Positions 4,563 through 24,361 of a DNA stretch of 64,000 nt are shown in pieces (positions within the stretch are counted from its first letter, which is position 1; each line of letters opens with the position of its first letter). A program made the position numbers and the translations under genes. Where the stretch lies: contig JBFKMV010000001.1 in assembly GCA_041629655.1 (NCBI GenBank), forward strand, positions 8,075 through 72,074. Reading direction: 5' to 3'. Origin of the DNA: Candidatus Polarisedimenticolaceae bacterium (lineage in GTDB: Bacteria; Acidobacteriota; Polarisedimenticolia; Polarisedimenticolales; Polarisedimenticolaceae). The notes beneath the pieces were generated by a model. The model was not told where the DNA came from, searched no databases, and saw nothing but the letters and a program-made list of their open reading frames with translations.

Positions 4563-4642
4563 CTCGTCCTCCTCGGGTAGCACGGTCGGCCTGGGAGCGC
4601 GCGCACCGTGCAGGGTCTTCTTTCGAACCGATCCGGTCTCAA

Positions 4643-4658
4643 AGCAACGGCCGTGCCA
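4643..4658 (-). promoter_or_regulatory. Sigma-54 (-24/-12) promoter candidate for the cytochrome c gene at 4245-4562
   Basis: The minus strand reads TGGCACGGCCGTTGCT, a full match to TGGCAC-N5-TTGCW with correct GG-to-GC spacing. It is intergenic, about 80 nt upstream of the ATG. Confidence 0.55.
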
Positions 4659-4781: not shown

Positions 4782-5246
4782 TCAGTCCGCTGCACCCGTG
4801 CTGCGCACCGCCAGCACGGGGCACGGCGCATGCCGGATCACCCGCTCGGTGGTCGAGCCCATCAGCGCGTGGGAGATGAACCCCCGCCCGTGGGTCGCCA
4901 TCACGATCAGGTCGGCACCGCGCTTTTCGGCCAGCTGGACGATCTCGCGGTGCGGCGTTCCGGTCAGCAGCACGGGCTCGATCGGAACGCGGTCGCCGAG
5001 CTGCTCGCGGACCGCGCGCTCCAGCTCGCGGGTGGCGTGCTTCTTGTGGTTCTCCATGATCTCGACCGTGGAGATCCCATTGACCCCGGGAAACTCACCG
5101 ATGAACGGCGGCAGCCGCTCCTCGTCCACGTACAGGAAGAGGATCTTGGTGCCGAACTTCTCCGCCATCATCAGCGCGGGCTCGAACGCCTGCTTGGCCG
5201 TCTCGGAGAAATCCGTGGTGAGGAGGATGGTTTTGAACTCGTTCAT
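4782..5246 (-). CDS. Universal stress protein (UspA family)
   Basis: ILLTTDFSE...LIVMATHGRGFISHALMGSTTERVIRHAPCPVLAV is the typical USP ATP-binding fold signature. Confidence 0.85.
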   Translation of the reverse strand: MNEFKTILLTTDFSETAKQAFEPALMMAEKFGTKILFLYVDEERLPPFIGEFPGVNGISTVEIMENHKKHATRELERAVREQLGDRVPIEPVLLTGTPHREIVQLAEKRGADLIVMATHGRGFISHALMGSTTERVIRHAPCPVLAVRSTGAAD

Positions 5247-5325
5247 GGCTCCTCCCTTCCTCCGACAGTGTAGCGTGCATACGGTGTGCCAGTCACGCCC
5301 CCGAGGCGGCGGGACCGGCGGCCCG

Positions 5326-5341
5326 TGGCTCGAAACTTGCT
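5326..5341 (+). promoter_or_regulatory. Sigma-54 (-24/-12) promoter candidate for the cytochrome c gene at 5390
   Basis: TGGCTCGAAACTTGCT has correct spacing and lies about 50 nt upstream of the ATG. A GGAAGGAGG RBS follows. Confidence 0.5.
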
Positions 5342-5389: not shown

Positions 5390-5854
5390 ATGCGAAGCCT
5401 GGAATTCGTGGTCGGATGCGTCGGAGTCGCCCTGGTCGCGCTGGGGCTGGCGATGGCCAGCGTGCCGTCCGGTTCGACGGCCGTGCTCGCCCAGACCACG
5501 ATCGCGGCCGCCGGGCCCGTCGGGTCGGCGCCCGTGCCCGACAAGGCCAAGCGGACGTCCAATCCGGTGCCCGCCACGGCGGATTCGGTCGCGGAAGGCA
5601 AGACGATCTTCAGCAGCCAGTGCACGATGTGCCACGGCGTGCTCGGCAGCGGCAAGGGCGACCTCGTCGAGCGGCTCGAGCTGCAGATGCCCGACTTCAC
5701 CGATCCCGCGTACCAGCGGGCGCGGACCGACGGCGAGCTGTTCTGGGTCATCAGGAACGGGCACGAGGAGATGCCCTCGCAGGCGAAGCGCTTCGACGAT
5801 CGGACCTGGTGGAACGTCGTCAACTACATTCGCACCCTTGAGCGGAAGGACTGA
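5390..5854 (+). CDS. Monohaem c-type cytochrome, secreted or membrane-anchored
   Basis: N-terminal hydrophobic segment and a single CTMCH motif. GELFWVIRNGHEEMP supplies the Met-ligand region typical of class I cytochromes c. Confidence 0.8.
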   Translation: MRSLEFVVGCVGVALVALGLAMASVPSGSTAVLAQTTIAAAGPVGSAPVPDKAKRTSNPVPATADSVAEGKTIFSSQCTMCHGVLGSGKGDLVERLELQMPDFTDPAYQRARTDGELFWVIRNGHEEMPSQAKRFDDRTWWNVVNYIRTLERKD

Positions 5855-7310: not shown

Positions 7311-8516
7311 ATGGTCTGCCGCCGGATCTGTGCATTGCTGACGCTGGCGCTCGTCGTCACCGCTTGCAGCGGCCCCGGGAGTCCGGAGGCGCCTCCGGTA
7401 GCCCAGGCCGTGAGCGAGATCGCGAGCCCCGCGGCCGCCGGAAGCGGCGAGCCGAATCTCACCGTCGGCGACGACGGGCGGTTGTACTTGAGCTGGATCG
7501 AGCCGTTCGACGACGGTCACGCCCTGCGCTTCGCGGTCCGCGAAGGAGCGGGTTGGAGCGCGCCGCGCACGATCGCGACCGGCCGGGACTGGTTCGTCAA
7601 CTGGGCCGACTTCCCCGCGCTGGCGGCGCTGGGCGACGGGACGCTGGCCGCGCACTGGCTGGCCAAGAGCGGACCCGGCACCTACGCCTACGACGTCTGG
7701 CTCGCCGTGTCGCGCGACGGGGGCGAGACGTGGAGCGAGCCGGTCCGGCCGCATGGCGACGGCACCCGGACCGAGCACGGGTTCGTGTCGCTGGTGCCGG
7801 CCGGGGACCGCTTCGGCGTGGCGTGGCTCGACGGGCGGGAGACGGCCGCGCAGCCACCGGGGCCGATGACGCTGCGCTACACCACGCTCGACCGCGAGGG
7901 CCGGGTGGGCCAGGAGCGCCTGATCGACGAGCGCGTCTGCGATTGCTGCCAGACGGAGGTGGTCCGGACCGCGGACGGCCTGGCCGCGTTCTTCCGCGAC
8001 CGTTCGACCGGGGAGATCCGGGACATCTACGTCGCCCTGGGCTCCGGCGACGACTGGTCCGAGTCGCGCGCCGTGCACGACGACGGCTGGAAGATCGCGG
8101 CCTGCCCGGTCAACGGGCCTGCGGCCGCGGCCTCCGGAGACGATCTCGCGGTCGCCTGGTTCACGGTTGCCGCGGGCGGCGAGGGCCAGGTCAAGCTGGC
8201 CTTCTCCGGGGACGGCGGCCGGAGCTTCGGTTCGCCGCTGCGCGTCGACGGCGGCAACCCGCTCGGACGCGTCGACCTCCTGCTGCACGACGACGGCTCG
8301 GCGCTGGTGAGCTGGCTCGAGCTGGGCGAGACGGCCGAGATCCGGGTCCGGCGGGTGGAGCCGTCGGGCGCGCTCGGTGAGCCGCGGGTCGCGGTGACGA
8401 CCAGCGGCGCGCGCTCGAGCGGCTTCCCGCGGCTGGCCCGGCTGGGCGGCGAGGTGTTCCTGGCCTGGACGGCGGCGGAAGAGCCCGCGCAGGTCAGGAC
8501 CGGCGTGCTGCGTTGA
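7311..8516 (+). CDS. BNR/Asp-box repeat (sialidase-fold) lipoprotein
   Basis: Lipoprotein signal MVCRRICALLTLALVVTAC. Asp-box SRDGGETW and a degenerate SGDGGRSF are present. The start inside the ORF was chosen at the signal peptide. Confidence 0.65.
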   Translation: MVCRRICALLTLALVVTACSGPGSPEAPPVAQAVSEIASPAAAGSGEPNLTVGDDGRLYLSWIEPFDDGHALRFAVREGAGWSAPRTIATGRDWFVNWADFPALAALGDGTLAAHWLAKSGPGTYAYDVWLAVSRDGGETWSEPVRPHGDGTRTEHGFVSLVPAGDRFGVAWLDGRETAAQPPGPMTLRYTTLDREGRVGQERLIDERVCDCCQTEVVRTADGLAAFFRDRSTGEIRDIYVALGSGDDWSESRAVHDDGWKIAACPVNGPAAAASGDDLAVAWFTVAAGGEGQVKLAFSGDGGRSFGSPLRVDGGNPLGRVDLLLHDDGSALVSWLELGETAEIRVRRVEPSGALGEPRVAVTTSGARSSGFPRLARLGGEVFLAWTAAEEPAQVRTGVLR

Positions 8517-10422
8517 CCGCGGCGCGGTCGTCCGCGCCGTCCGTCGCCGCCGCCTCGGCTTCCGGGCCGCCGCTGCCGTGCCCTTCCTGCGGGGCGGTAC
8601 GCCGCTCCGCCGCGCGGGCCGCGGGAGAGCGGCCGGTCAGCCACGCCGTATCCATCGGGTAGACCACCGGGTCGAAGACGACGAAGTACAGGTGCCAGAC
8701 CAGGATCGCCAGGCTGGCCAGCACCGCCTCGTAGAAGTGGATCGCGGTGGCGAGGTCGGTGATCCACTTCGGCAGCCAGCGCAGCACCAGGTTGTCGAAC
8801 CACAGCACGAAGCCGCTGATCGCCATCACGACGATGCCCCACATCAGCGCCAGGTACTCGAGCTTCTCGGGATACCCGAGCGTTCCCGTACGAGGGGGTT
8901 CCGGGCGGCGGCCGAAGAAGTACCGCACCCGCTCCACGAGCTCGTGGAGATCCTCCCGCCCGGGGCGCATCGCTGCGATACAGGCCCGGGCGCGGCGGTC
9001 CAGCGCCAGATGGAGCAGGTGGAACAGCAGCGCCGCCAGCATCACGATCGAGGCCCCGCGGTGCAGCCAGCCGCGTAGGCCCAGCGAGTCCTCCCAGGCC
9101 AGCACCGGCTGCGCCCACCGGGCCTCGGGGTACGTCAGCGCGAACCCGGTGTAGACCAGCACCACGAAGCTCACCATCAGGGTCGCGTGCGCGATGCGGA
9201 ACCCCGGCGACATCCGCTCGGCGGCGGTGGCATCGGCGGGAGGTCGCGTCGGGGGAGTGAGGACCTTGCGCCGCAGGTCGAGCAGGTTGTGCAGCAGCAT
9301 GCCGCCGACGGTCAGGTAGATCAACCACAGGTAGATCACGCGGACCCAGCGCACCGAGACGTGCTCCCCGTTGTCCGCGGTGAAGTGCACGGTGCCGATC
9401 GCGAAGCGTTGCCCGGCCCCGGGGTGGCACTGCCCGCACGTCGCGGCGAGATTGTCCTTGTGCGTGTGCGAGCGCGGGTCCGACGAGGGCAGCGTGTCGT
9501 GCACGCCGTGACACGACCCGCAGTGTGCCACGGTGAGCCTCCCGGAGCGGCCGGCCAGGCCGTGGTAGCTGTCCTGGTAGGCCGGCACCCTGTCCAGCGC
9601 CAGGTCGTACTTCTCGGCCAGCCTGAGGTCGCCGTGACAGCGACCGCAGGTCATCTTGGGGATGTTGGTGGCGTAGACGGGCGAGCCCTTTTCCCGCGGC
9701 GACACGATCCGGTGCTCGCCGTGACAGTCGGTGCACACGGGCGCCTCGCGCAGCCCGCGGGCCGAGGCGGTACCGTGGACGCTGCCGCGGTAGATCTCGG
9801 CGATCGATCCGTGACACGATCCGCAGGTCTCGGGAACGCGCTGGTGGAACACCGTCGAGCGCGGGTCGGAGGCCGGCTGGATCCCGTGGCTGCCGTGACA
9901 GTCGCTGCAGGTCGGCCCGGCGCCGCCCGCGGCGAGGAGCTGGCCGTGCACGCTCTTCAGGTACGCCTCGAGCGGCCGGACCAGCTTGATGCCGTAGCGC
10001 GCCACCTTCTCGGGGTCGGCGTGGCAGGAGCCGCAGGTCTCCGCCAGCCGCAACCCGTGGACCGGAGAGGCCTCGTCCGCCGCCGGCAGGACGGTGTGGA
10101 TCCCGCCGTGGCAGACCTGGCAGTCCGGTGCTTCCGCGGTGCCCTCGGCGCGCACCCGGCCGTGCACGCTGGCGCGATACTCCTCGACGATCCCGTCGTG
10201 GCAGGTCGCGCAGTCGACCTCGCCGGCCGTCTCGGCGTGCGGCACCTCGTCGGTTCCGGCGTGGCAATCGCCGCACTCGAGAAAGCCGTGCGCGCTGGCC
10301 TCGTAGCTCTCCGGTTCGAGCTCGTGGCAGTCGGCACAGGGTATCGCCTCGGCTGCGCGCGGCGGCGCGGCGGCGGCGCAGAGCAGCAACACCAGTAGCG
10401 TGACCCACGGAACGGCACGCAT
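8494..10422 (-). CDS. Multihaem cytochrome c (11 CXXCH) fused to a membrane dihaem cytochrome b domain (CbcL-like quinol oxidoreductase)
   Basis: Starts MRAVPWVTLLVLLLCAAAAPPRAAEA inside the artefactual 1370-aa ORF. It has 11 CXXCH motifs, followed by 4-5 TM helices with conserved His (IAHATL, FHLLHL, AIHFYE, WHLYF), as in FdnI/HydC-type cytochrome b. Confidence 0.85.
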   Translation of the reverse strand: MRAVPWVTLLVLLLCAAAAPPRAAEAIPCADCHELEPESYEASAHGFLECGDCHAGTDEVPHAETAGEVDCATCHDGIVEEYRASVHGRVRAEGTAEAPDCQVCHGGIHTVLPAADEASPVHGLRLAETCGSCHADPEKVARYGIKLVRPLEAYLKSVHGQLLAAGGAGPTCSDCHGSHGIQPASDPRSTVFHQRVPETCGSCHGSIAEIYRGSVHGTASARGLREAPVCTDCHGEHRIVSPREKGSPVYATNIPKMTCGRCHGDLRLAEKYDLALDRVPAYQDSYHGLAGRSGRLTVAHCGSCHGVHDTLPSSDPRSHTHKDNLAATCGQCHPGAGQRFAIGTVHFTADNGEHVSVRWVRVIYLWLIYLTVGGMLLHNLLDLRRKVLTPPTRPPADATAAERMSPGFRIAHATLMVSFVVLVYTGFALTYPEARWAQPVLAWEDSLGLRGWLHRGASIVMLAALLFHLLHLALDRRARACIAAMRPGREDLHELVERVRYFFGRRPEPPRTGTLGYPEKLEYLALMWGIVVMAISGFVLWFDNLVLRWLPKWITDLATAIHFYEAVLASLAILVWHLYFVVFDPVVYPMDTAWLTGRSPAARAAERRTAPQEGHGSGGPEAEAAATDGADDRAAVNAARRS

Positions 10423-10454
10423 CGGCGCTCTCCTTTCCGGCGGACCTCCAACGT

Positions 10455-10470
10455 AGCAGGCGCCGCGCCA
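10455..10470 (-). promoter_or_regulatory. Sigma-54-like promoter candidate for the 11-haem gene
   Basis: The minus strand reads TGGCGCGGCGCCTGCT. Spacing is correct, with one mismatch in the -12 box. An AAGGAG RBS lies between it and the ATG at 10422. Confidence 0.4.
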
Positions 10471-10547
10471 GCGACCTGTGGACAAAGCGCGTTGACAACT
10501 CGACCTGTCCGAAGTCCGCAGGCCTCGGGAGGGAGTCAGGTGTCGGA

Positions 10548-10563
10548 TGGCGCAGGTCTTGCT
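10548..10563 (+). promoter_or_regulatory. Sigma-54-like promoter candidate for the 19-haem gene
   Basis: TGGCGCAGGTCTTGCT has correct spacing. However, the predicted start site lies only about 5 nt before the ATG at 10579, giving a near-leaderless mRNA, so confidence is reduced. Confidence 0.35.
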
Positions 10564-10578
10564 GCCATCACCGTTCCC

Positions 10579-13386
10579 ATGACGACGCCACTGCGATCCG
10601 GGCCCGCCTCGCGCCGCGCCGGGAGATGGACAGCCGCGGTCTTGCTGCTGCTGTCGGTCCTCGCCCCCGCAGCCGCGCAGGAGAACGACGACTGCCTGAT
10701 GTGTCACGCCGACCCAGACCTCGTCGGCGAGCGCGCAGGGGCGGAGATCTCCGTTTACGTCGACGCGAAGGTCTACGCGGGTTCCGCGCACGCGGGCCTG
10801 GAATGCGTGATGTGCCACCAGGATCTCGCGGGCGAAGAGCTGCCGCACGGGGACGAGCCCGCGCGGGTGGACTGCTCGCCGTGCCACGACCGGCAGGCCG
10901 CCGAGCACGATCACAGCCTCCACGGCCGCGCGGCGCGGCGCGGCGACGAGCTGGCGCCGAGCTGCGCCACCTGCCACGGCACCCACGGCATCCGGTCCCA
11001 CAACGATCCGGGCTCGCCGACGGCCCTGCTGAACATTCCCCAGCTGTGCGGAAAATGTCACCACGAGGGCACCCCGGTCTCGCTGACCCACGAGATCCCG
11101 CAGGACCGCATCCTGGAGAACTACTCCGAGAGCATCCACGGGCAGGGCCTGTACGAGAAGGGGCTCATCGTCACCGCCGTCTGCACCTCCTGCCACACCT
11201 CGCACAACATCCTGCCCCATACCGAGAAGGACTCGAGCATCCACGCCGCCAACGTCGCGCGAACGTGCACCCAGTGCCACGGTCGGATCGAGGACGTGCA
11301 CCGCAAGGTCATCGAGGGGCGGCTGTGGGAGGAAGAGCCGCACAAGATCCCGGTCTGCGTCGACTGCCACTCCCCGCACAAGATCCGCCGCGTGTTCTAC
11401 CCGGCGGGCCTGGCCAACCAGGACTGCCTGAAGTGCCACGGGGACCCCGAGCTCGCCCTGGAACGGGACGGCGCGACGGTGTCGCTGTACGTGGACGGGG
11501 AGGTCTACGCGGCCACCGCGCACGCGACCGTCGGTTGCGCGCAGTGTCACACCGAGGTGCGGACGTCGCGCGAGCGACCCTGTGAGACGGTGACCGCGCC
11601 GGTCGATTGCAGCATCTGTCACGCCGAGCCGGTCAACGAGTTCTTCGGGAGCACCCACGGCACGCTGCTCGCCGCGGGCGACCACGATGCCCCCTCGTGC
11701 CAGGACTGCCACGCCCGGCACGCGACCCAGAAGAAGACCAATCCGACCTCGCCGACCTACCCGCGCAACGTGCCCGTGCTGTGCGCCAAGTGCCACCGCG
11801 TCGGCGAGCAGGCGGCGGTGCGGATCCACAGCGAGGTGCCGGACATCGTCCAGAGCTACCTCGACAGCATCCACGGCAAGGGGCTGATCCAGAGCGGTCT
11901 GGTGGTGACCGCGACCTGCGCCGACTGCCATTCGGCCCACGGCGAGCTGCCGCCGGACGATCCGCGGTCGACCGTCAACCCGGCCAACCTCAACCACACC
12001 TGCGGTACGTGCCACCGCGGGATCGAGGAGGTGTTCCGCTCGAGCATCCACGCCACCGGGACCCCGGGCGCGGGACGACACCTGCCGACCTGCGAGAACT
12101 GCCACTCCTCGCACACGATCAGCCGCACCGACGTGCCCGGGTTCCGGACGCTGATGATGGATCAGTGCGGCCGGTGTCACGAGACCGAGGCCGAGACGTT
12201 CTTCGACACCTTCCACGGCAAGGTGTCGCGGCTCGGCGCCGAGCGCGCGGCGAAGTGCTACGACTGCCACGGCACGCACAACATCCTGCCGGTCGAGAAC
12301 CCGGACTCGACGCTCAGCCGGTCCCACGTCGTCACCACCTGCGGGCAGTGCCACGACGCCGCGCACCGGCGTTTCGCCGGCTACCTGACCCACGCCACGC
12401 ACCACGACCCGGACAAGTACCCCTGGCTGTTCTGGACCTTCTGGGGCATGACGGCGCTGCTGGTCGGGACGCTGACCTTCGCGCTGATGCACACCCTGGC
12501 CTGGCTGCTGCGGCTGTGGCTCAACCGCGAGGAGTGGCGGGCGCACCGGGCCCACCGCTCGGGCAAGCTGGTGCGGCGCTTCACGCGGCTCCAGCGCGGC
12601 ATGCACATGACGATGCTGCTGAGCTTCTTCACCCTGGCGATCACCGGGATGACGCTAAAGTTCTCCTACATGGGCTGGGCGCAGGGCCTGTCGCGGGTGC
12701 TCGGCGGCTTCGAGGCCACGGGGTTCTTGCACCGGCTGGGGGCGGTGGTGCTGTTCGGGGTGTTCGTGGTGCACCTGGTCGACGTGCGGCGCAAGAAGCT
12801 CGCCGCCGGCCGGAGCTGGTGGGGCTTTCTGACCGGGCCGGACACGATCCTGTTCACGCGACGCGACCTGCGCGAGCTGTGGCAGTCGATCCGCTGGTTC
12901 GCGGGCGCCGGCCCGCGGCCGCGTTACGGGCGCTTCACCTACTGGGAGAAGTTCGACTACTTCGCCGTGCTGTGGGGCATCGTGGTGATCGGTTCGACCG
13001 GCCTGATCCTGTGGTTCCCCGAGCTGTTCACCCGGGTGCTGCCGGGCTGGTTCGTCAACGTGGCCACGATCATCCACAGCGACGAGGCGCTGCTGGCCGT
13101 CGCGTTCATCTTCACCGTGCACTTCTTCAACACGAACTTCCGCCCGGACAAGTTCCCGCTGGACACCGTGATCTTCACCGGCCGGGTCTCGCTCGAGGAG
13201 CTGCAGTACGACAAGCCGGACGAACACGCCGAGCTGCTGGCCTCCGGCGCGCTGGACCAGCACATCGTGCAGCCGCTGCCGCGGCCGGCCGAGCGCGCCG
13301 CGAAGACCTTCGCCTCGCTGGCCCTGGCGACCGGGCTGACCTTGATCGCGCTGATCGTCTACACGATGCTGATCGGCTACCGCTAG
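10579..13386 (+). CDS. Multihaem cytochrome c (19 CXXCH) fused to a membrane cytochrome b domain (CbcL-like, expanded)
   Basis: Signal peptide MTTPLRSGPASRRAGRWTAAVLLLLSVLAPAAAQ. It has 19 CXXCH motifs, followed by about 6 TM helices with conserved His (LMHTL, GMHMT, FLHRL, VVHLV, IIHSDE, TVHFF). Confidence 0.85.
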   Translation: MTTPLRSGPASRRAGRWTAAVLLLLSVLAPAAAQENDDCLMCHADPDLVGERAGAEISVYVDAKVYAGSAHAGLECVMCHQDLAGEELPHGDEPARVDCSPCHDRQAAEHDHSLHGRAARRGDELAPSCATCHGTHGIRSHNDPGSPTALLNIPQLCGKCHHEGTPVSLTHEIPQDRILENYSESIHGQGLYEKGLIVTAVCTSCHTSHNILPHTEKDSSIHAANVARTCTQCHGRIEDVHRKVIEGRLWEEEPHKIPVCVDCHSPHKIRRVFYPAGLANQDCLKCHGDPELALERDGATVSLYVDGEVYAATAHATVGCAQCHTEVRTSRERPCETVTAPVDCSICHAEPVNEFFGSTHGTLLAAGDHDAPSCQDCHARHATQKKTNPTSPTYPRNVPVLCAKCHRVGEQAAVRIHSEVPDIVQSYLDSIHGKGLIQSGLVVTATCADCHSAHGELPPDDPRSTVNPANLNHTCGTCHRGIEEVFRSSIHATGTPGAGRHLPTCENCHSSHTISRTDVPGFRTLMMDQCGRCHETEAETFFDTFHGKVSRLGAERAAKCYDCHGTHNILPVENPDSTLSRSHVVTTCGQCHDAAHRRFAGYLTHATHHDPDKYPWLFWTFWGMTALLVGTLTFALMHTLAWLLRLWLNREEWRAHRAHRSGKLVRRFTRLQRGMHMTMLLSFFTLAITGMTLKFSYMGWAQGLSRVLGGFEATGFLHRLGAVVLFGVFVVHLVDVRRKKLAAGRSWWGFLTGPDTILFTRRDLRELWQSIRWFAGAGPRPRYGRFTYWEKFDYFAVLWGIVVIGSTGLILWFPELFTRVLPGWFVNVATIIHSDEALLAVAFIFTVHFFNTNFRPDKFPLDTVIFTGRVSLEELQYDKPDEHAELLASGALDQHIVQPLPRPAERAAKTFASLALATGLTLIALIVYTMLIGYR

Positions 13387-13390
13387 CCCG

Positions 13391-14836
13391 TCAGGGCTGC
13401 AGCTGGCCCAGGATCTCCGGCTGTTCCTCCTCCATCGCCAGCAGGCTGTGGCAGGTGGAGCAGTCCTGGGAGATCGTCTCGCCGTCGGCGGTCGCGTGCT
13501 CGTCGTTGTGGCAGCGGAAGCAGCCGTCGAAGCTGGTGTGGCCGATGTGGTTGGGGTACGTGCCCCAGCCGATGTTCATCGTCGGGAACACGTTCCGGCA
13601 GTAGATGTCGCCCAGCACGCCCGCCGCCTCGGCGATCCGTGGTCCGTCGGAGCTTGCCAGCTCGGGGTAGTTCTCGCGGTAGAACGCCGTGATCCGCTCC
13701 GCGATCGCCTGCCGCGCCTCGTCATGCGACGCGTAGGACTCCTCGAGCGCCCGCAGGCCCTCGCGGCGGATGTAGGGCAGGGAGCGGTCGAGACGGCCCT
13801 CGGCGATCGCCTCGTCGATCGAGCGGTCGGGCAGCTTGTACACGTGGGTCGGCCGGTTGTGGCAGTCCACGCAGTCCATCTCGCGCCATTCCGGCTCCAC
13901 CTCGGGCGCGCCCGCCGCGCCCTGCTCCGCGGCCTGTCCGTTGGCCGCCCGTTGCGGGGGCAGCCAACGCTTGACCGTACCGTCCGGGAGCGTCAGCTCG
14001 ACCTCGTGGATCGTCTCGCGCGTCGCGTCGGCGCGGTAGCGGATACGGTTGGCCGGATCGACGTGCCAGTGGATGCCGTGGGACTTGCGTCCCTGGATCC
14101 CGCCCACCCGCAGCAGCAGCACCGACTTCAGCTCGGTGTTCTGCTCGTCCTCGGCGTAGTGGGTCAGCACCTTCAGCCGGTCGCCGACGAACTTGGTCGG
14201 CCAGTGGCACTGCTCGCAGGTCTCCCGCGCCGGCCGCAGGTTCTCGACCGGGGTCGGGATCGGCCGCGGGTAGAGATCGAAGGCCACGGCCACGACCTGC
14301 CAGGCGCCGGACAGCTTCGACTTGACGAACCAGTTCGCCCCGGGCCCGATGTGGCACTCGACGCACTTGACCCGCGCGTGGGGCGAGCTCTGGTAGGTCG
14401 TGAACTCGGGATCCATCACGGTGTGGCAGGCCTGCCCGCAGAACTCCGTCGAGTCCATCACCTCGACGCCCTTGTAGGTCGCGGTGGCCAGGATCACCAG
14501 GTTGACCCCCGACATGGCCAGGAACACCAGCACCGCCTTGCGGGTCGGCTTCCGGTTGAGGTCGACCACCGGGAACGTCGGGGCCGGCTCGCCGCGAGCC
14601 TCGGCGGCGCGTTCGCGGCGGCGCTCCCGCACGATGCCGACCGGGATCAGTGCCAGTCCGACCAGGAAGATCGCGGGCAGGATCAGGTAGGCCAGGATGC
14701 CGATGTAGGGGCCGCCCTCGTGGCCCACCAGTCCGATCGCGAACAGCGTCAGGATCAGCAGCGCGGCGGCCGTGGTGATCGCGGCGCCGACCAGGCTGAT
14801 CGCGTTCCGGGTCAACGCGATGAAGAACGTCCTCAT
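13391..14836 (-). CDS. Membrane-anchored NapC/NirT-related multihaem cytochrome (ImcH-like)
   Basis: Three N-terminal TM helices, then five CXXCH motifs (CVECH, CEQCH, CVDCH, CFRCH, CSTCH). One CX3CH (FCGQACH) sits at the position of the first NapC haem. Confidence 0.75.
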   Translation of the reverse strand: MRTFFIALTRNAISLVGAAITTAAALLILTLFAIGLVGHEGGPYIGILAYLILPAIFLVGLALIPVGIVRERRRERAAEARGEPAPTFPVVDLNRKPTRKAVLVFLAMSGVNLVILATATYKGVEVMDSTEFCGQACHTVMDPEFTTYQSSPHARVKCVECHIGPGANWFVKSKLSGAWQVVAVAFDLYPRPIPTPVENLRPARETCEQCHWPTKFVGDRLKVLTHYAEDEQNTELKSVLLLRVGGIQGRKSHGIHWHVDPANRIRYRADATRETIHEVELTLPDGTVKRWLPPQRAANGQAAEQGAAGAPEVEPEWREMDCVDCHNRPTHVYKLPDRSIDEAIAEGRLDRSLPYIRREGLRALEESYASHDEARQAIAERITAFYRENYPELASSDGPRIAEAAGVLGDIYCRNVFPTMNIGWGTYPNHIGHTSFDGCFRCHNDEHATADGETISQDCSTCHSLLAMEEEQPEILGQLQP

Positions 14837-14924
14837 GGCACCTCGCTCAGCCGGTTTTCGGGGGCGACCCCGTCCGGGGGAATCATGCTAGATGGAATCG
14901 CGCCGCGGCGCCCGTGGATCCGCT

Positions 14925-16145
14925 TCAGCTCCAGCGCAGCCCGAGTTGCTGGAGCATCGCGGCCAGCCCCTCGCCGGATGCCGGTAGGCACGGCAGCAAC
15001 CGCGCGGCATGGGCCTTGACCCAGTCGTTCGCCTCGGGCCCCGCCGCCGGCGGGCCCTCGAGACCCAGCAGGCGTTGCCATTCGGCGCGTCGTTCCGACT
15101 GGTAGATCTCGAACAGCTTCGGCGTGCCGTCGCGCCGCAGGGCGGACCCGATCCGGTCGGCGAGGTCCCACGCCTCGCGCAAGCCGACGTTCATGCTCTG
15201 CGCGCCCACCGGACCGGTCACGTGCGCGGCGTCGCCGGCCAGCCACACGTGGCCACTCCCGAACTGCTCGGCCAAGCGGCGCTCGAACCGCGTGTCGGTG
15301 GCCCAGAAGACCTCGGCCGGACGGGGCTCGAACCACGGGGCCCGGGAGCTGAGCAGCGTCTCCAGCGAGGAACCGCCCCGGTCCGGCGCCCGGTCCGGCT
15401 GCGGCGCCTCGCGCTCGACCTGGAAGCTCCAGCGCCCGCGAGCGCCGGCCATCGGCCACAGCACGTTCAGCATGTTCTCATGGAACACCACCCGCATCTC
15501 GCCGCCCAGGTCGAACGGTGCGCGGAACTCGAACACCGCGAAGCTCTCGGCGCCCCCGTGGTCCTCGAAGCGGGTGCCGAGGCTGCGCCGCGTGAACGAA
15601 TGATAACCGTCGGCGCCGATCAGGAACGAGCAGTTGCTCTCGAACCGCTTGTCGACGATCCACTCGGTGCGGGCGATCGGGTAGCCCAGCGACACCCGGT
15701 CGAGCCGCCCCAGCTCGCAGCCCACCCCGCCCTCGGCCCGCTCCTCGATCGCCAGCAGCTGGTGGTTCCACAGCACGCGTACCCCGCGCTCGCTCAGCCG
15801 TTCCTCGAGCTCTCCCTCCAGCTTGCTCTGCGGCAGCACCAGCACGAACGGGAAACGGCCGCCGAGCGGTTCCAGCTCGACGGCGGCCCGCTGGGTCTTG
15901 CCGTCGTAGAACCCGATCCGCGTGATCCGTTGCCCCTGCTCGACCAGCGGTTCCGCGAGCCCCAGCTCGTCGAGCATCGACAGCGTCGCGGGGTGCAGGG
16001 CCAGGGCGTAGCTGTGCGCCGAGCCGATCCAGTCGCGGTCGATGATCTGCACGGTGACGTCCTGCTCGGCCAGGCACAGCGCGGCGAACAGCCCCACCGG
16101 CCCCGCGCCCACGATCGTCACGTCGGTCTGGCGCTTCGGTTTCAT
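14925..16145 (-). CDS. FAD-dependent monooxygenase (UbiH/PHBH-like)
   Basis: N-terminal VTIVGAGPVGLFAALCLAE Rossmann motif and a later GDAAHVTGPVGAQSMN FAD-binding motif. Confidence 0.8.
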   Translation of the reverse strand: MKPKRQTDVTIVGAGPVGLFAALCLAEQDVTVQIIDRDWIGSAHSYALALHPATLSMLDELGLAEPLVEQGQRITRIGFYDGKTQRAAVELEPLGGRFPFVLVLPQSKLEGELEERLSERGVRVLWNHQLLAIEERAEGGVGCELGRLDRVSLGYPIARTEWIVDKRFESNCSFLIGADGYHSFTRRSLGTRFEDHGGAESFAVFEFRAPFDLGGEMRVVFHENMLNVLWPMAGARGRWSFQVEREAPQPDRAPDRGGSSLETLLSSRAPWFEPRPAEVFWATDTRFERRLAEQFGSGHVWLAGDAAHVTGPVGAQSMNVGLREAWDLADRIGSALRRDGTPKLFEIYQSERRAEWQRLLGLEGPPAAGPEANDWVKAHAARLLPCLPASGEGLAAMLQQLGLRWS

Positions 16146-16161
16146 GGTGTACTCCCCGGAC

Positions 16162-18186
16162 TCAGAAGGTGAGCCCCGCGCGGAGCGACACGATCTGACC
16201 CTTGTAGTCCAGGCCGTCGTTGCTGAACAGCACGGCGCCCAGCCCGTCCAGCCGGCGGCCCCCGTCGTCGTACTCGAAATCGCGGTAGTCGGCCCCGAAG
16301 TACAGGCCGTTCGGAAGGAGGTAGGTCAGACCCAGCTCCCAGTCGTCGTAGTCCTGCGCGATCACCTCGTCGTTGACCAGGCCGGAGGCGTCGCCGAACA
16401 GCAGGTTGTGGCCTTCGGACTCGGTCATCGTGTAGCGGGCGTGGATCTTCCACGCCTCGCTCCAGCGGTAGTTGAGGTAGGCCGAGAGCTGCGTGTTGTC
16501 GTTCTGGAACACGGAGTCGCCGTCGTCCGCCAGATTGAAGCCGGCGAGGTCGAACCGCACGCCGACGCGCGTGTCGATCTCCTGCTCGGCGTAACGCAGC
16601 ATGTAATCGACGTTCTCGTTGGCCTTGTGCCAGAACGCCACCGAGTGCGTGGTGCCCTCGGCGGTGCCGTCGTAGAACGAGCCGGGGCTGCGGAGGTCCG
16701 GGGCGTTGTTGTCGTGGTCGAAGTCGAGGTATCCCAGGTCGATCCGCATCTCGGGCTGCGGCAGGAATGCGGCGCGGATCCGGGTATGCGAGGTCTCCCG
16801 CGGGGCCACGGCGTTGAACGGCTGCGTGATGTCGCCGTTCTCGATGTCGGCGTTGAGGCGAAACCACTTCACCGGCCGCAGCGACAGGCCGAAGATCACG
16901 GTCTCGTCGTCGTCGGAGTCGAGCTCGGTGTCGCGCAACAATCCGCCGAAGCCGTTGCGGTCGAGCGTGCGGTCGATGGTGCGATAGCCGGCCCGCAGCG
17001 CCACCGTCCGCGCCGGGCGCGCTTCGACCAACGCGGTCAGCGTGCTCAGCTCGTAGTCGAGGCGGGTGTCCGAGGACGGCACCCCGTCGCCGTCGATGTC
17101 GTCCTCCAGGCCGTCGCCGTCGAGGTCGCGCGTAAGCACGCCGTCCAGCTCGCGGTCCAGGTTGCGGAACTGCAGGTGCAGGTCGACCGCCTCGACGAGC
17201 TTGACCGTCAGATCGACGTCGACCAGCATCGTGTCGCCCTCGGCCTCGGAGCGGCTGGATCCGCCGACAACCGAGAACGGGTCGCCGTTGAAATCGAGAC
17301 CCGTCGCGTCCAGCCCGACGCGGCTGTCGAGCTGCTCTTCGCCGAGCAGCGTACCGATCAGCGAGACCGCGAGGCGCACCCGCTTGCCGAGACCGGCGCC
17401 GACCCGGATCGTGGTCAGATCGACGTCCCCGTCGTCGCGCTGGAGCCAGTCGTAGGAGTCGAGTCGCGACAGCGCTCCGGCCTCGAGCCCGGCGTTGTCC
17501 TCGGTGATGTTCCGGAAACGGTTGTCGTAGCTGCGCCGGCTCTGGCGGAACAACAGGTTGACCGGCCCGACCTCGACCGTGGCGGCGACGCTGAACAGCT
17601 CGTGCTCGGCGTCGAGCGGCGTGTCCAGACGGAACAGGTTGCGCTCGACGTCCTTCATGAACAGGGAGTTGCCGGTGCGTTCCCCGCGCTGGTAGTTGAA
17701 CGAGAGTTGGACGCGCTCCGACGGAAAGGCCCGGAACGTCAGATCGGTCATCCGGCGCCGGGCGTCCCACGCCGCACCGTCCTCGTTGTTGACCAATCCG
17801 AACAGGTCGTACAGGTAGGCCTGCTGCCAGTGCGTCGCGCGTAGATCGTAGACGTTGCGCCGGCCGAGCTGGAACGAGCCGCGCCGGTAGGGATCTCCCA
17901 GGCCACTGAGCTCGAGCCGCGCGCGGTCGAGCAGCTTCGAGTCCAGGTCGCTCCAGTCGAGCTCCAGGTTGGCCAGCCGCACGCCCGAATCGAGACCGTC
18001 GAAATCCTCGTCGTACTTCCGCCGGCTCCCGTCGCGGTCCACGTCGCGATAGACCAGCTCGACCGAGCCGCTGGGGCTCCGCTTGTCCTCGTCCTCCGCG
18101 CGGACCCCGGAGTCGGCTCCGAGCAGCAGCCCGGCGAGGGCGAGACCGGTCAGGGCGAAACCGAGGCCAGGGTGTCTCGTCGTCAT
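16162..18186 (-). CDS. Large outer-membrane beta-barrel, MtrB/PioB-type partner of the decahaem cytochrome
   Basis: Signal peptide, 674 aa, alternating beta-strand pattern rich in D/N/Y/R, and a C-terminal ...LRAGLTF. It starts 3 nt after the stop of the decahaem gene. Confidence 0.7.
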   Translation of the reverse strand: MTTRHPGLGFALTGLALAGLLLGADSGVRAEDEDKRSPSGSVELVYRDVDRDGSRRKYDEDFDGLDSGVRLANLELDWSDLDSKLLDRARLELSGLGDPYRRGSFQLGRRNVYDLRATHWQQAYLYDLFGLVNNEDGAAWDARRRMTDLTFRAFPSERVQLSFNYQRGERTGNSLFMKDVERNLFRLDTPLDAEHELFSVAATVEVGPVNLLFRQSRRSYDNRFRNITEDNAGLEAGALSRLDSYDWLQRDDGDVDLTTIRVGAGLGKRVRLAVSLIGTLLGEEQLDSRVGLDATGLDFNGDPFSVVGGSSRSEAEGDTMLVDVDLTVKLVEAVDLHLQFRNLDRELDGVLTRDLDGDGLEDDIDGDGVPSSDTRLDYELSTLTALVEARPARTVALRAGYRTIDRTLDRNGFGGLLRDTELDSDDDETVIFGLSLRPVKWFRLNADIENGDITQPFNAVAPRETSHTRIRAAFLPQPEMRIDLGYLDFDHDNNAPDLRSPGSFYDGTAEGTTHSVAFWHKANENVDYMLRYAEQEIDTRVGVRFDLAGFNLADDGDSVFQNDNTQLSAYLNYRWSEAWKIHARYTMTESEGHNLLFGDASGLVNDEVIAQDYDDWELGLTYLLPNGLYFGADYRDFEYDDGGRRLDGLGAVLFSNDGLDYKGQIVSLRAGLTF

Positions 18187-18189
18187 CGG

Positions 18190-19032
18190 CTACTCCTCCA
18201 GGAAGAACGGGCTGGTGTTCGACCCGTGGATCGCGGTGTGACACGCGGTGCACTTCTCGTTCAAGAAGCGCGGCACGCTGTGCCAGCCCGGCGTGACGCT
18301 GGCGCTGTGGCACTGGTAGCACAGGTTGACCTGCGGCTCGTGCTTGAGCAGGTGGCGGTTCGGCGAGCCGTGGACCTCGTGGCACGCGGCGCAGCCGTCC
18401 ACGAACACGACGTCGTGCGAGTAGACGTAGGGCACTGCCTTGTCGAAGTGGCAGTCCCCACAGGTGTCCCGGAACAGCGACCGGTCGGTGCGCAGGGACT
18501 TGGTGGCGTGCGGGTTGTGACATTTCGCGCACTCGGCGATGGGGTGGCTACGGGGCAGGTCGAACTGGGCCGCGATGGCCTGGTGGCACCGCGAGCACAG
18601 CTCGCTGCCCTCGGCGCGCAGCAGCTTGTCGTGGCTGCCGTGCGGATCGTGGCAGTCGTTGCAGCCGACGTCGCCGAGCCTGTGGAGGCTCTGCATCGAG
18701 GAGAAATGAGCCTCCTGCTTGCGATGGCAGCTCAGGCAGGTCTCGGAGGCCTGCCGCGCCGACAACTCGCCGAAGCGGACGATCCTGGCGGGGTCACCGC
18801 CCTCCTCGACGTGTGCGGTGCCGGGTCCGTGGCAGCTCTCGCACCCTCGCTCCTCGTCCCAATACGGACTGCGGGCGTGGGGGGTACGCGCGAACGCGGC
18901 GGCAATCTCGTCGTGGCAGGCCGCGCACGTCTCGCTGCCGACGTATTCTTCCTCGGCACCGACCGGCGCCGCTAGGGGAACCGCGCAGCACAAGGCGACC
19001 AGCGGTAAAAGCCGTCGGAACATCCGGTGCAT
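18190..19032 (-). CDS. Periplasmic decahaem c-type cytochrome, MtrA/DmsE/PioA family
   Basis: Signal peptide MHRMFRRLLPLVALCCAVPLAAPVGA and exactly 10 CXXCH motifs in about 255 mature residues. A GGAGGAGG RBS precedes the ATG at 19032. An alternative ATG lies at 19023. Confidence 0.85.
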   Translation of the reverse strand: MHRMFRRLLPLVALCCAVPLAAPVGAEEEYVGSETCAACHDEIAAAFARTPHARSPYWDEERGCESCHGPGTAHVEEGGDPARIVRFGELSARQASETCLSCHRKQEAHFSSMQSLHRLGDVGCNDCHDPHGSHDKLLRAEGSELCSRCHQAIAAQFDLPRSHPIAECAKCHNPHATKSLRTDRSLFRDTCGDCHFDKAVPYVYSHDVVFVDGCAACHEVHGSPNRHLLKHEPQVNLCYQCHSASVTPGWHSVPRFLNEKCTACHTAIHGSNTSPFFLEE

Positions 19033-19087
19033 GACCTCCTCCGTGGCGACATCGGGCAGGACCGACCGCACCCGAACCGTAGCGCAA

Positions 19088-19096
19088 TTTATACCA
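19088..19096 (-). promoter_or_regulatory. Extended -10 sigma-70 promoter candidate for the decahaem/barrel operon
   Basis: The minus strand reads TGGTATAAA (TGn + TATAAA), about 55 nt upstream of the ATG. The same TGGTATAWW 9-mer recurs upstream of secA and EF-G. Confidence 0.3.
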
Positions 19097-19233
19097 GCGA
19101 CCCGTGGGAAACGGGGTCGCTCCATCGACAACGCGGACCCAATCGCTCCGAAACACGCCTGGCGCCGGGAATGCTACCGTATCCGACCCCGGCGGTGGAA
19201 GCCTCGCCGCGCGTCCGGGGGAGGAAGGGTGCG

Positions 19234-21153
19234 ATGGCCTCAGCGGCGAATCCGGGAGACACTGGCCAGGCGGCCACGGCGCAGTGGCAGGAGCGCCACG
19301 CCTCCAAGCTGGCCACGCTGGAGCAGGCCGTGCGCGCGATCCCGCCGGGCCGCTGCGTGATGATCGGGTCCGGGGCCGCCGAGCCCCACGCGCTGGTCGA
19401 GGCGATGGTGGAGCACGGCACCCACCTCGCCGACAACGACGTCGTGCACCTGCTGACGCTCGGGCCCGCGCCCTACGTGCGGCCCGGGATGGAGCGGCGC
19501 TTCCGCCACACCGCGTTCTTCATCGGCAAGAACGTGCGCGAGGCGGTCCAGGACGGCCGCGCCGACTTCATGCCGGTGTTCCTGTCCGAGATTCCGTCGC
19601 TGATCCGCTCGCGCCGCGTGCGGGTCGACGTGGCGATGATCCAGGTCAGCCCGCCGGACCGCCACGGCTACGTCAGCCTCGGCGTGGCCGTGGACGTGGT
19701 GCGCGCCGCGGTCGATTCCGCCGAGCTGATCCTGGCCGAGGTCAACCCGCGAATGCCCCGCACGCTGGGGGACTCGTTCGTCCACGTGGACCGGATCCGG
19801 TACCTGGTGCCCGTGGACTACGAGCTGCCCGAGCTGGATCCCAGCCCGCCGGACGAGGTCTCGGCCGAGATCGGGCGTCACGTGGCGAGCCTGATCCCCG
19901 ACGGCGCCACGATCCAGGCCGGGATCGGCGGCATCCCCAACGCGGTGATGGCCGCGCTGGCCGGGCGCAACGACCTCGGCGTCCACACCGAGATGTGCTC
20001 GGACGGCATGATGGAGCTGGTCGAGGCCGGCGTGATCAACGGCCGGCGCAAGACCTTGCTGCCGGGCAAGCTGGTGACCTCGTTCCTGATGGGCAGCCGC
20101 CGGCTCTACGACTGGGCCCACGACAACCCGGCGGTCGAGATGCGTCCCAGCGAGTTCACCAACGACCCCTTCACGGTGGCGCGCAACGACCACATGGTGG
20201 CCGTCAACTCCGCGCTGGCCGTCGACCTGACCGGGCAGGTCGCCGCCGACACGCTGATGGGGCGGTTCTTCTCGGGAATCGGCGGCCAGGTCGACTTCAT
20301 CCGCGGCGCCGCGCGCAGCCGCGGGGGCCGCGCGATCATCGCCCTGCCCTCGACGGCGCGGAACGGGACGGTGAGCCGGATCCGGCCGGTGCTCGAGGAG
20401 GGCGCGGGGGTCGTGACCAGCCGGGGCGACGTGCACGACGTGGTGACGGAATACGGCGTCGCCGACCTGTGGGGCAAGAACATCCGGCAGCGCGCGATGG
20501 CGCTGATCGAGATCGCGCATCCCGACTTCCGCGGCGAGCTGCTGGCGGCGGCCAAGGCGCGCCGGTTCGTGTTCCCCGACCAGGTCGCGCCGCGGGCCGT
20601 GTATCCCTGGGAGGAGGAGCGGCAGGTCGCCCTGGCCGACGGCACCCGGGTGACCGTGCGTCCGGTCCGGCTGACCGACGAGAAACCGCTCCAGGACCTG
20701 TTCTACCGGTTGTCCGACGAGTCGACCTACCGGCGCTTCATGGCCTTCAAGCGCGTGCATCCCCACGAGGACATGCAACGTCTGGTCTCGCTCGACTACC
20801 AGCAGAACATGGGGCTGGTGGTCTCGATCCGCGAGGGCGGGCGCGAGGAGATCCTGGCCATGGCGCGCTACGACGTCGACCCGGCAACCCAGCTGGCCGA
20901 CATCGCGTTCGTGGTGCGTGACGAGTGGCAGGGCCGGGGCATCGGGACGCTGCTGATGCGGCGGATGGGCGAGATCGCGCGCGCGCGTGGGCTGGCGGGG
21001 TTCACCGGCGACGTGCTGGTGACGAACAAGCCGATGCTGGCCGTGTTCCAGAACAGCGGCCTGGCGATCCGCATGGAGTTGCGCCAGGGCAGCTATCACC
21101 TGACGGCCACGTTCGAGGACGACCCCGAAGCCCGCGAGCAGCCCGAGGCCTGA
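19234..21153 (+). CDS. Acetyl-CoA hydrolase/transferase family domain fused to a C-terminal GNAT acetyltransferase domain
   Basis: The N-terminal 480 aa resemble the 4-hydroxybutyrate CoA-transferase/acetyl-CoA hydrolase family (GSGAAEPHAL, EMCSDG, GIGGQVDF). The C-terminus has the GNAT motif VRDEWQGRGIGTLLM. Start chosen at the ATG after GGAGGAAGG. Confidence 0.75.
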   Translation: MASAANPGDTGQAATAQWQERHASKLATLEQAVRAIPPGRCVMIGSGAAEPHALVEAMVEHGTHLADNDVVHLLTLGPAPYVRPGMERRFRHTAFFIGKNVREAVQDGRADFMPVFLSEIPSLIRSRRVRVDVAMIQVSPPDRHGYVSLGVAVDVVRAAVDSAELILAEVNPRMPRTLGDSFVHVDRIRYLVPVDYELPELDPSPPDEVSAEIGRHVASLIPDGATIQAGIGGIPNAVMAALAGRNDLGVHTEMCSDGMMELVEAGVINGRRKTLLPGKLVTSFLMGSRRLYDWAHDNPAVEMRPSEFTNDPFTVARNDHMVAVNSALAVDLTGQVAADTLMGRFFSGIGGQVDFIRGAARSRGGRAIIALPSTARNGTVSRIRPVLEEGAGVVTSRGDVHDVVTEYGVADLWGKNIRQRAMALIEIAHPDFRGELLAAAKARRFVFPDQVAPRAVYPWEEERQVALADGTRVTVRPVRLTDEKPLQDLFYRLSDESTYRRFMAFKRVHPHEDMQRLVSLDYQQNMGLVVSIREGGREEILAMARYDVDPATQLADIAFVVRDEWQGRGIGTLLMRRMGEIARARGLAGFTGDVLVTNKPMLAVFQNSGLAIRMELRQGSYHLTATFEDDPEAREQPEA

Positions 21154-24345: not shown

Positions 24346-24361
24346 TGGCATTGGGGTTGCT
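24346..24361 (+). promoter_or_regulatory. Sigma-54 promoter candidate for the Rrf2 regulator gene
   Basis: TGGCATTGGGGTTGCT has correct spacing and lies about 45 nt upstream of the ATG at 24405. An AAAGGAGG RBS follows. Confidence 0.55.

Follow-up and report, generated by a model that had tools for sequence, protein, structure and literature searches.

How might members of the Acidobacteriota, which are among the most abundant bacteria of soils and sediments and whose respiratory options are poorly known, pass electrons between their quinone pool and the outside of the cell? The question is raised by a block of multihaem cytochrome genes at positions 8494-19032 of a 64,000-nucleotide stretch of a Candidatus Polarisedimenticolaceae genome (assembly GCA_041629655.1, contig JBFKMV010000001.1, positions 8,075 to 72,074). 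This whole stretch was analysed, is called the window below, and supplies all coordinates. The block holds six genes, here named A to F. We conclude, with a probability of roughly 0.65, that they encode those components of an extracellular electron transfer (EET) pathway that span the membranes. The host is a member of the Acidobacteriota related to strain Mor1 (subdivision 22). The candidate parts are an outer-membrane pair made of the decahaem cytochrome F and the barrel E, an ImcH-like cytochrome C, two CbcL-like cytochromes A and B, and a flavin monooxygenase, D.

Mechanical lists of open reading frames (ORFs) are crowded with spurious frames in the window, which has ca. 70% G+C. Genes were called by a frame analysis of the GC content at third codon positions (GC3) together with translation, and six real genes were resolved in the block (Table 1). 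A 1370-aa ORF at 8494-12606 was discarded as a high-GC artefact, in which gene A runs on into the antisense of B. The six genes contain 45 CXXCH haem motifs (11 in A, 19 in B, 5 in C and 10 in F) and one CX3CH motif in C, which reproduces the count of the initial annotation. No further multihaem genes were found in the 64 kb, and the only other coding-like frames with CXXCH motifs are two monohaem genes at 4245 and 5390, both of which had been proposed before and proved to be real by their Cytochrome_CBB3 matches. Because no other such frames occur in the window, the clustering of the haem genes is not due to chance. Gene F ends with a TAG, followed by three nucleotides (CCG) and the ATG of E, exactly as had been noted. 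On the minus strand the gaps between F, E, D and C are 3, 16 and 88 nt, and a scan of 8000-19600 predicted no terminator on this strand. As A and B are divergent, on opposite strands, and B converges on C, the block would comprise three transcription units, namely A, B and F-E-D-C.

The protein at the head of the latter unit, F, is predicted to be a periplasmic decahaem c-type cytochrome of the MtrA/MtoA/DmsE superfamily. It has a Sec signal peptide, with an N-terminal hydrophobic stretch, and no lipobox. It covers profile positions 1-257 of 258 of TIGR03508 (DmsE family) with 191.1 bits, missing the cut-off of 192.2 by 1.1 bits, and scores 198.7 against the GSU2203 family, for which the cut-off is 325. 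Residues 63-272, which correspond to haem motifs 2-10, match MtrA of the solved Mtr complex (PDB 6r2q_A, 1.8e-25).

The barrel E starts with a signal peptide, ends in phenylalanine and is free of cysteine. The hidden Markov models (HMMs) of the MtrB/PioB family, PF11854 and TIGR03509, give no match at E<=1, and neither the single sequence nor an 18-sequence profile finds a meaningful sequence match in the PDB. A word-indexed search of 5.8 billion proteins returned only 18 relatives. The AlphaFold2 model built on these 18 relatives, with a predicted local distance difference test score (pLDDT) of 84 and a predicted template modelling score (pTM) of 0.75, is a 26-strand barrel when one broken strand is merged. 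Its top fold match in the PDB is MtrB of the Mtr complex (6r2q_B, template modelling (TM) scores of 0.69/0.71), whereas the other fold matches listed, 22-strand TonB-dependent receptors, reach query-normalised TM scores of at most 0.46. PF11854 is matched at the gathering score by three of the 18 relatives. A profile search started from E collected 590 relatives among 1.84 billion representatives, and half of the ten distant relatives that were scanned (P0040, P0052, P0054, P0063 and P0153) pass the PF11854 gathering score. The assignment of E as MtrB-like is hence based on the fold match and on transitive homology, not on an HMM match of its own; E probably represents a divergent branch of the MtrB/PioB superfamily, with membership at the superfamily level by transitivity. 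One of the distant relatives, P0153 (941 aa), has N-terminal class-I cytochrome c domains fused to an MtrB_PioB barrel (PF11854, 33 bits), and is a fused cytochrome-porin of the large 26-strand family and not of the Cyc2 type. The initial annotation had described F and E as an MtrA/MtrB-type pair and had expected the barrel to match MtrB/PioB models. The part concerning F stands, as do the gene order and spacing known from mtoAB and pioAB. Taken literally, E alone fails the models, but in substance the expectation is borne out by the MtrB fold of its model and by its PF11854-positive relatives.

On the side of the inner membrane, C combines the features by which ImcH is recognised, which are three N-terminal transmembrane helices, an atypical CX3CH motif, five to nine CXXCH motifs and NapC/NirT homology (Zhong & Shi 2018, PMC6295460). 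Its helices span residues 19-37, 51-69 and 101-119, a CGQACH motif (CX3CH) follows at 133-138 just after the third helix, and then come the five CXXCH motifs; the protein scores 2e-10 against Cytochrom_NNT and 4e-14 against NrfH. The residues Glu127, His137, Lys173, Gln179 and Tyr188, which are conserved in ImcH of Geobacter sulfurreducens (Pimenta et al., bioRxiv 10.1101/2023.05.03.539133), correspond with a constant offset of +1 to D128, H138, K174, Q180 and Y189 of C, with Asp in place of Glu. Over 247 aa C is 42% identical to ImcH of G. sulfurreducens, and over 272 aa it is 61% identical to the homologue of A. dehalogenans (Anaeromyxobacter); both values are approximate, as the reference sequences were read by optical character recognition from the supplement of Pimenta et al. 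C is thus an ImcH-family member with six haem sites, and is predicted to act as a menaquinol:cytochrome c oxidoreductase.

A and B both start with a signal peptide and end with a cytochrome b domain. In A this domain reaches 56.7 bits against Ni_hydr_CYTB (gathering score 30.1), and in B it matches FdnI (2.4e-8), with a Ni_hydr_CYTB score of 21.9 bits, which is under the gathering score. Of the six transmembrane helices expected in the CbcL/MtrH/MtoC group, a hydropathy scan predicts five in A, with His412, His468, His471, His562 and His577, and all six in B, with His676, His718, His732, His833 and His848; in both proteins histidines are found in the first helix, in the second helix and, as two residues 15 positions apart, in the fourth. 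The two proteins are paralogues with 33% identity extending through the membrane domain. B contains an internal tandem duplication of an 8-haem module (residues ~31-282 against ~283-530, 42% identity, nearly the same CXXCH spacings), and it is because of this duplicated module that B has eight more haems than A. The start of B is uncertain, as NCBI and JGI call longer products. In two loci of related genomes, L013 and L027 (L numbers denote such loci throughout), the orthologues of A are 65% and 57% identical and those of B 73% and 69%. Published members of the CbcL/MtrH/MtoC group range from 416 to 1034 aa, with 3-23 CXXCH motifs and a C-terminal HydC/FdnI-type dihaem cytochrome b (PMC6295460). 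By architecture, size and haem count, A and B appear to share this layout of a multihaem periplasmic domain followed by a dihaem cytochrome b. The initial annotation had assigned the CbcL architecture to A and B and had called C ImcH-like, and both assignments are upheld by these results, with C as a genuine family member.

The remaining gene, D, lies between the outer-membrane pair and C. The protein matches FAD_binding_3 (7e-49), carries the GXGXXG (GAGPVG-13), DG (DGYHS-179) and GD (GDAAH-304) fingerprints and lacks a signal peptide; it is predicted to be a cytoplasmic, single-component group-A FAD-dependent aromatic monooxygenase. It remains under every NCBIfam equivalog cut-off, and its nearest solved relatives are phenol and polyketide hydroxylases. 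Where DNA was available, its orthologues are 51-57% identical. They adjoin imcH and cbcL-like genes in L027 and in a contig of JGI 3300056388, and in L026 the orthologue is located two genes downstream of the barrel. D is therefore linked to the outer-membrane pair in two genomes (the window and L026) and to imcH/cbcL in three (the window, L027 and JGI 3300056388), four genomes in total, and is a conserved partner of the system rather than a passenger. The titles and abstracts listed by a search of open-access papers showed nothing about any flavin monooxygenase tied to ImcH.

To place the pair in context, 18 further pair loci were collected by genome, metagenome and exact-protein look-ups. 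In all of them a decahaem gene (49-69% identical to F) lies directly upstream of a barrel gene (36-55% identical to E), with a gap of 3-5 nt in the six loci where gene calls existed. The named records among them are all Acidobacteriota and include the isolate 'Acidobacteria bacterium Mor1' (subdivision 22). The window shows long-range synteny with Mor1 and with the metagenome-assembled genome (MAG) of L007, with a shared order of universal stress protein (Usp), pair, acetyl-CoA hydrolase, kinase, sigma-54 regulator, Rrf2, AhpC, BolA and S49 peptidase. Within this otherwise collinear block, F-E of the window (16162-19032) is inverted relative to 9141-12025 of L006/L007. The ca. 11 kb between Usp and the pair are taken up in the window by a cytochrome c, an aminotransferase, a BNR lipoprotein and A, B, C and D, and the corresponding interval of Mor1 measures ca. 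4.7 kb and holds unrelated genes. A horizontally transferred island, a sense in which the initial annotation could be taken when it spoke of an island, is ruled out by the uniform GC (~0.70, as in the housekeeping surroundings), the lack of mobility genes and the conserved flanking synteny with Mor1; the locus is chromosomal and ancestral.

The companions of the pair vary between these loci. In L004 (6077-9097) and L008 (5833-8853) a secreted protein of 1006 aa is encoded directly upstream of the pair, in the mtrC position. Its N-terminal domains are CarboxypepD_reg-like, and its nine CXXCH motifs cluster at residues 450-820; by Pfam it is not homologous to MtrC/OmcA, and it is a candidate for a non-canonical surface cytochrome. 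The 9-haem protein has no homologue in the window and was rejected as an MtrC analogue there. No MtrC/OmcA-type lipoprotein multihaem gene was found beside the pair within the 64 kb, in line with the initial annotation. An 8-haem protein accompanies the pair in L015, a CymA-like tetrahaem NapC/NirT protein does so in L016, and in L002, L007 and L024 a monohaem class-I cytochrome c gene is positioned directly upstream of the decahaem gene. These variable companions fit the modular picture of an MtrAB core plus variable accessories (Baker et al. 2022, PMC8805035). L016 also has an IS110 transposase after the barrel gene.

The inner-membrane genes and the pair can occur apart. In the closest relative genome, a 207-kb JGI contig carries C, B and A in the exact arrangement of the window without F-E (L013), and ca. 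47 kb away the order kinase, HDAC, acetyl-CoA hydrolase is followed by F, E, a lyase, D and Rrf2 (L026). FeoA/FeoB ferrous-iron transport genes and a DtxR-type iron repressor are found just downstream of the latter series (L026, 11739-14861), an iron-related neighbourhood. L027 has D, C, Rrf2, an A-like gene, Usp, kinase, sigma-54 regulator and a B-like gene, all on one strand and with no F-E within 10 kb. The 8.2-kb contig of JGI 3300056388 shows the order D, C, A-like and (B-like); D is separated from the next gene by 3 nt, and C overlaps the gene that follows it by 4 nt. The locus in the window, which unites both modules and the regulators in ca. 20 kb, thus appears to juxtapose two independently conserved modules, F-E and D/C/A/B.

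The same regulators flank either module in different genomes. Homologues of the histidine kinase flank the decahaem-barrel pair in L006, L007, L015, L016 and L026, and those of the sigma-54-dependent response regulator adjoin the pair or the imcH set in the same five loci and in L027. Rrf2 has homologues that neighbour D or C (L026, L027) or are encoded close to the pair (L006, L007, L016). The Usp gene keeps its syntenic position in L006 and L007, and in L027 it falls between the A-like and the B-like gene. Of the two monohaem cytochromes of the window, the one encoded at 5390 has a 50% identical homologue directly upstream of the decahaem gene in L024. In L016 (4408-7538), a more distant relative, the regulators beside the pair are of the kinds found in the window, namely a histidine kinase, a sigma-54 regulator and Rrf2, except that the kinase carries a protoglobin domain, a haem-based gas sensor, which hints at control by O2 or redox state. 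Scanning the window for TGGCAC-N5-TTGC with up to one mismatch gave seven sigma-54-type matches, compared with 3.1 expected; five of 100 shuffled sequences reach seven. Five of the matches are located in short intergenic gaps, upstream of genes and oriented with them (Table 1). No sigma-54 promoter was found upstream of F. An AT-rich element, TGGTATAAATTGC (19085-19097, minus strand), lies ca. 55-65 nt upstream of the F start in an intergenic region of otherwise 70% GC. It was rejected as a sigma-54 site, as the spacing between GG and GC is 8 and not 10, and may instead be an extended -10 promoter for F-E-D-C. No sigma-70 consensus was detected in 8000-19600, and terminator-like sites occur there at chance level.

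Table 1. Genes and promoter-like sites of the window, with positions, strand and description
Feature	Position	Strand	Description
A	8494-10422	-	642 aa, 11 CXXCH and cytochrome b domain
B	10579-13386	+	935 aa, 19 CXXCH and cytochrome b domain; start codon uncertain
C	13391-14836	-	481 aa, three transmembrane helices, one CX3CH and 5 CXXCH
D	14925-16145	-	406 aa, FAD_binding_3
E	16162-18186	-	674 aa, outer-membrane barrel
F	18190-19032	-	280 aa, 10 CXXCH
Monohaem class-I cytochrome c	4245-4583	-	signal peptide, Cytochrome_CBB3 4.6e-16; candidate periplasmic carrier
Monohaem class-I cytochrome c	5390-5854	+	signal peptide, Cytochrome_CBB3 1.9e-13; candidate periplasmic carrier
Universal stress protein	4782-5246	-	Usp 2.8e-33; recurrent neighbour of the cytochrome set
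PAS-domain histidine kinase	21169-22626	-	PAS, HisKA, HATPase_c; start uncertain, longest ORF to 22830
NtrC-type sigma-54-dependent response regulator	22817-24184	+	Response_reg, Sigma54_activat (1e-66), HTH_8
Rrf2-family regulator	24405-24968	+	Rrf2 2.3e-34; CX7CX5C cluster-binding motif (Fe-S-type)
Sigma-54 site	4644-4658	-	perfect TGGCAC-N5-TTGC, ca. 60-80 nt upstream of monohaem gene 4245
Sigma-54-like site	5277-5291	-	upstream of Usp
Sigma-54-like site	5326-5340	+	upstream of monohaem gene 5390
Sigma-54-like site	24346-24360	+	upstream of Rrf2
Sigma-54-like site	10548-10562	+	17 nt before the B ATG; doubtful, B start codon uncertain

The remainder of the window consists of housekeeping genes, and an Rfam scan of its whole length gave no match. 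Among these genes are two for SecA, at 1207-3198 and 41984-44782, both on the plus strand. The full-length product (932 aa) includes the Wing/Scaffold and SEC-C domains. These are missing from the shorter paralogue (663 aa), which resembles a SecA2-type accessory system and whose gene overlaps an HlyD-like membrane-fusion gene (90-1214) at the end of the latter.

From these parts the following pathway can be proposed. F would thread through E to give a two-component outer-membrane wire of the MtoAB/PioAB kind, arranged as in 6r2q and without an MtrC-type cap. C and A/B would exchange electrons between the menaquinone pool and the periplasm, probably serving different windows of redox potential, as in Geobacter. 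Electrons would reach F through the long haem domains that A and B extend into the periplasm (with 11 and 19 haems), through the two monohaem cytochromes, or through both, and the PAS kinase with its sigma-54 regulator, together with Rrf2, would control expression.

Several points weigh against this proposal. The whole case is drawn from sequence, E on its own escapes the MtrB/PioB HMMs, and the gene for an extracellular partner could lie beyond the 64 kb. For 12 other loci the sequence continues downstream of the barrel gene, and C is not next to it in any of them; C/B/A adjoin F-E only in this genome and in the near-identical L001, and in the closest relative genome they are the ca. 47 kb apart described above. 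C may moreover be a general quinol dehydrogenase, as its family is very large and highly conserved (7,987 hits among 8,000 word-sharing candidates scored, the best 120 being 60-69% identical to C) and as it occurs alone amid housekeeping genes in L011 and L012. Taken together with the inversion of F-E within the otherwise conserved Mor1/L007 synteny and with D-C-A-B of L027, which has no pair within 10 kb, these observations would fit a coincidental juxtaposition by local rearrangement, in which the F-E conduit has its partners elsewhere and D/C/A/B are a general menaquinol-oxidising set for periplasmic respiration or redox homeostasis. We consider such a coincidence unlikely: D is tied to both modules in different genomes, the same types of regulators (sigma-54 response regulator, histidine kinase, Rrf2) accompany both, C is spaced as an operon member downstream of F-E-D in the window, and the linkage of the L016 pair to another quinol dehydrogenase, the CymA-like tetrahaem protein, suggests that such linkage is selected. 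Nor does any locus seen have an alternative periplasmic reductase beside C/A/B. The initial annotation had pointed to nitrite, sulfite or DMSO reductase catalytic subunits beside homologous loci as a sign of ordinary periplasmic respiration; none adjoins any of the ca. 25 related loci, and the periplasmic-reductase reading was rejected on this ground. A conduit like DmsEF, in which F-E supplies an extracellular or periplasmic terminal reductase of DMSO, iodate or a similar compound instead of minerals or humics, would agree with the best score of F, which is against the DmsE-family model, and with the composition of DmsEF from the same two parts (PMC9732548). It is nevertheless highly improbable, since no molybdopterin or Fe-S reductase subunit is found in the 64 kb or beside any of the 18 related pairs.

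The other points against the proposed pathway bear on its direction, a matter that the sequence by itself does not decide, as the initial annotation stated. Pairs without MtrC are characteristic of Fe(II) oxidisers, the monohaem cytochromes beside the pair in L002, L007 and L024 resemble MtoD, and D, by its predicted class, needs O2. Given that the system serves EET, we slightly favour outward flow, because ImcH has been reported only from Fe(III) reducers (PMC6295460) and is known only as a low-potential quinol oxidase, because the ImcH haems are of very low potential, titrating between -350 and -150 mV (bioRxiv 10.1101/2023.05.03.539133), and because a large multihaem protein takes the mtrC position in some relatives. 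In this case soluble or colloidal acceptors, for instance chelated Fe(III) or humic quinones, would be respired at the exposed end of F. The less probable alternative is an inward flow of the MtoAB/PioAB type, in which F would oxidise extracellular Fe(II) or reduced humics and MtoD-like monohaem cytochromes and the CbcL/MtoC-type proteins would pass the electrons to the quinone pool or a terminal oxidase. Uptake would agree with the lack of an MtrC-type cap, as in MtoAB and PioAB, and the monohaem class-I genes directly upstream of the decahaem gene, including the 50% identical relative of the 5390 gene in L024; the CbcL-family MtoC belongs to the mto clusters of Fe(II) oxidisers, and the O2-dependent class of D suggests an oxic or microoxic lifestyle. 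However, the transfer of electrons from Fe(II) to quinone via C would be uphill at the potentials of the ImcH haems, the 9-haem protein of L004 and L008 gives these loci a reducer-like layout, and the genome of L013/L026 has a [NiFe] hydrogenase and Rnf beside the cytochromes, which suggests an anaerobic metabolism. The window also contains no carbon-fixation or oxidase genes. The pathway favoured here, from the quinone pool outwards, may also be reversible.

The part that D would play in EET is a matter of speculation. The leading guess is a ring hydroxylation of a quinone or redox shuttle that serves the pathway. The guess is guided by an analogy to Listeria monocytogenes, for which Light and colleagues reportedly described, in 2018, an EET locus with a dedicated quinone (Ndh2, DmkA/B, EetAB, PplA). 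This locus, like the one in the window, has its own cytoplasmic flavoenzyme, and it also has quinone-biosynthesis genes, but its proteins are unrelated and the envelope is Gram-positive; for D the parallel is no more than an idea. Extended further, D could be an integral, previously unrecognised part of an acidobacterial ImcH/CbcL/MtrAB-type system, hydroxylating a quinone or soluble shuttle to give a dedicated carrier comparable to the dedicated demethylmenaquinone of Listeria, and the membrane-anchored B with its 19 haems could hard-wire the inner membrane to the decahaem cytochrome without soluble carriers. We regard this extension as rather improbable.

If the proposed pathway is correct, a complete candidate route that starts at the quinone pool and ends at the cell surface would be encoded at a single site, and the locus would tie Geobacter-type ImcH and CbcL to an outer-membrane pair of the Shewanella and iron-oxidiser type. 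Strain Mor1, a cultured relative within the lineage, would allow experiments on the outer-membrane pair. As candidates for accessory or regulatory components of electron export or uptake, the locus offers the flavin monooxygenase, which recurs in other genomes, and the neighbouring sigma-54 regulator, Rrf2 and Usp. The divergent barrel family would probably be overlooked by iron-gene annotation that uses the tested MtrB/PioB HMMs, and such conduits may be under-counted in metagenomes.

Among the known systems, MtoAB (with MtoC and MtoD/CymA) of Sideroxydans, Gallionella and Dechloromonas and PioAB of Rhodopseudomonas palustris are close to the window in several respects. A decahaem gene is followed by the gene of a 26-strand barrel, there is no MtrC-type surface cytochrome, and a CbcL-family MtoC and monohaem c-type cytochromes are encoded in or near the cluster. 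Unlike these systems, the window has a barrel too divergent for the MtrB/PioB HMMs, a decahaem protein just under the DmsE cut-off, an acidobacterial host, two CbcL-type paralogues with 11 and 19 haems, an ImcH-type gene and a flavin monooxygenase, and ImcH points to reduction and not to Fe(II) oxidation. With Shewanella MtrCAB (6r2q) the locus shares a decahaem protein homologous to MtrA, a barrel whose modelled fold is closest to MtrB (TM score ca. 0.7) and the order of the A gene before the B gene; it differs in the lack of MtrC and in an identity of only ca. 14% between E and MtrB.

The initial annotation had regarded both the combination of Geobacter-style inner-membrane modules with an MtrAB-type pair and the lack of an extracellular decahaem partner as unusual. 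The former was overstated, as the CbcL-family genes mtoC and mtrH are already known inside mtoAB and mtrAB clusters (Shi et al. 2012; Zhong & Shi 2018, PMC6295460), and the latter is the norm in MtoAB/PioAB systems (PMC8805035). Within the same phylum, Baker et al. 2022 (PMC8805035) described Group 5 MtrCAB clusters from Acidobacteriia/Bryobacterales, in which MtrC is accompanied by a tetrahaem gene and 'no putative inner membrane quinone oxidoreductases' are found close by, whereas the window has three candidates for such a function. Porin-multihaem clusters are now being reported from other classes of Acidobacteriota as well (bioRxiv 10.64898/2026.05.27.727921).

The inner-membrane proteins compare best with those of Geobacter and its relatives. 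C has the signature of G. sulfurreducens ImcH (GSU3259), with the 42% identity confined to the comparison with its N-terminal 250 aa, and six haem motifs instead of seven. A and B agree with CbcL (GSU0274) by architecture, in that a multihaem c domain is joined to an FdnI/HydC-type cytochrome b, with 11 and 19 haems compared with 9. The adjacency of imcH and cbcL-like genes seen in L027 and JGI 3300056388 has a parallel in Desulfuromonas acetexigens: ImcH and CbcL of this species, both induced on electrodes, have consecutive accession numbers (PMC12133095), and for this reason their genes are probably adjacent. Geobacter, however, couples ImcH and CbcL to Pcc/Ext porin-cytochrome complexes and not to an MtrAB-type pair, and in the survey of 2018 there was 'no mtrAB/mtoAB ... 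adjacent to imcH' (PMC6295460). What is unusual here is therefore the presence of imcH in the same gene string as the barrel pair. All parts of the locus appear to be of known classes, and the whole is best described as a putative MtoAB-like conduit that comes from an acidobacterial family of divergent sequence and is joined in one gene cluster to ImcH, the two CbcL-type paralogues and the conserved flavin monooxygenase.

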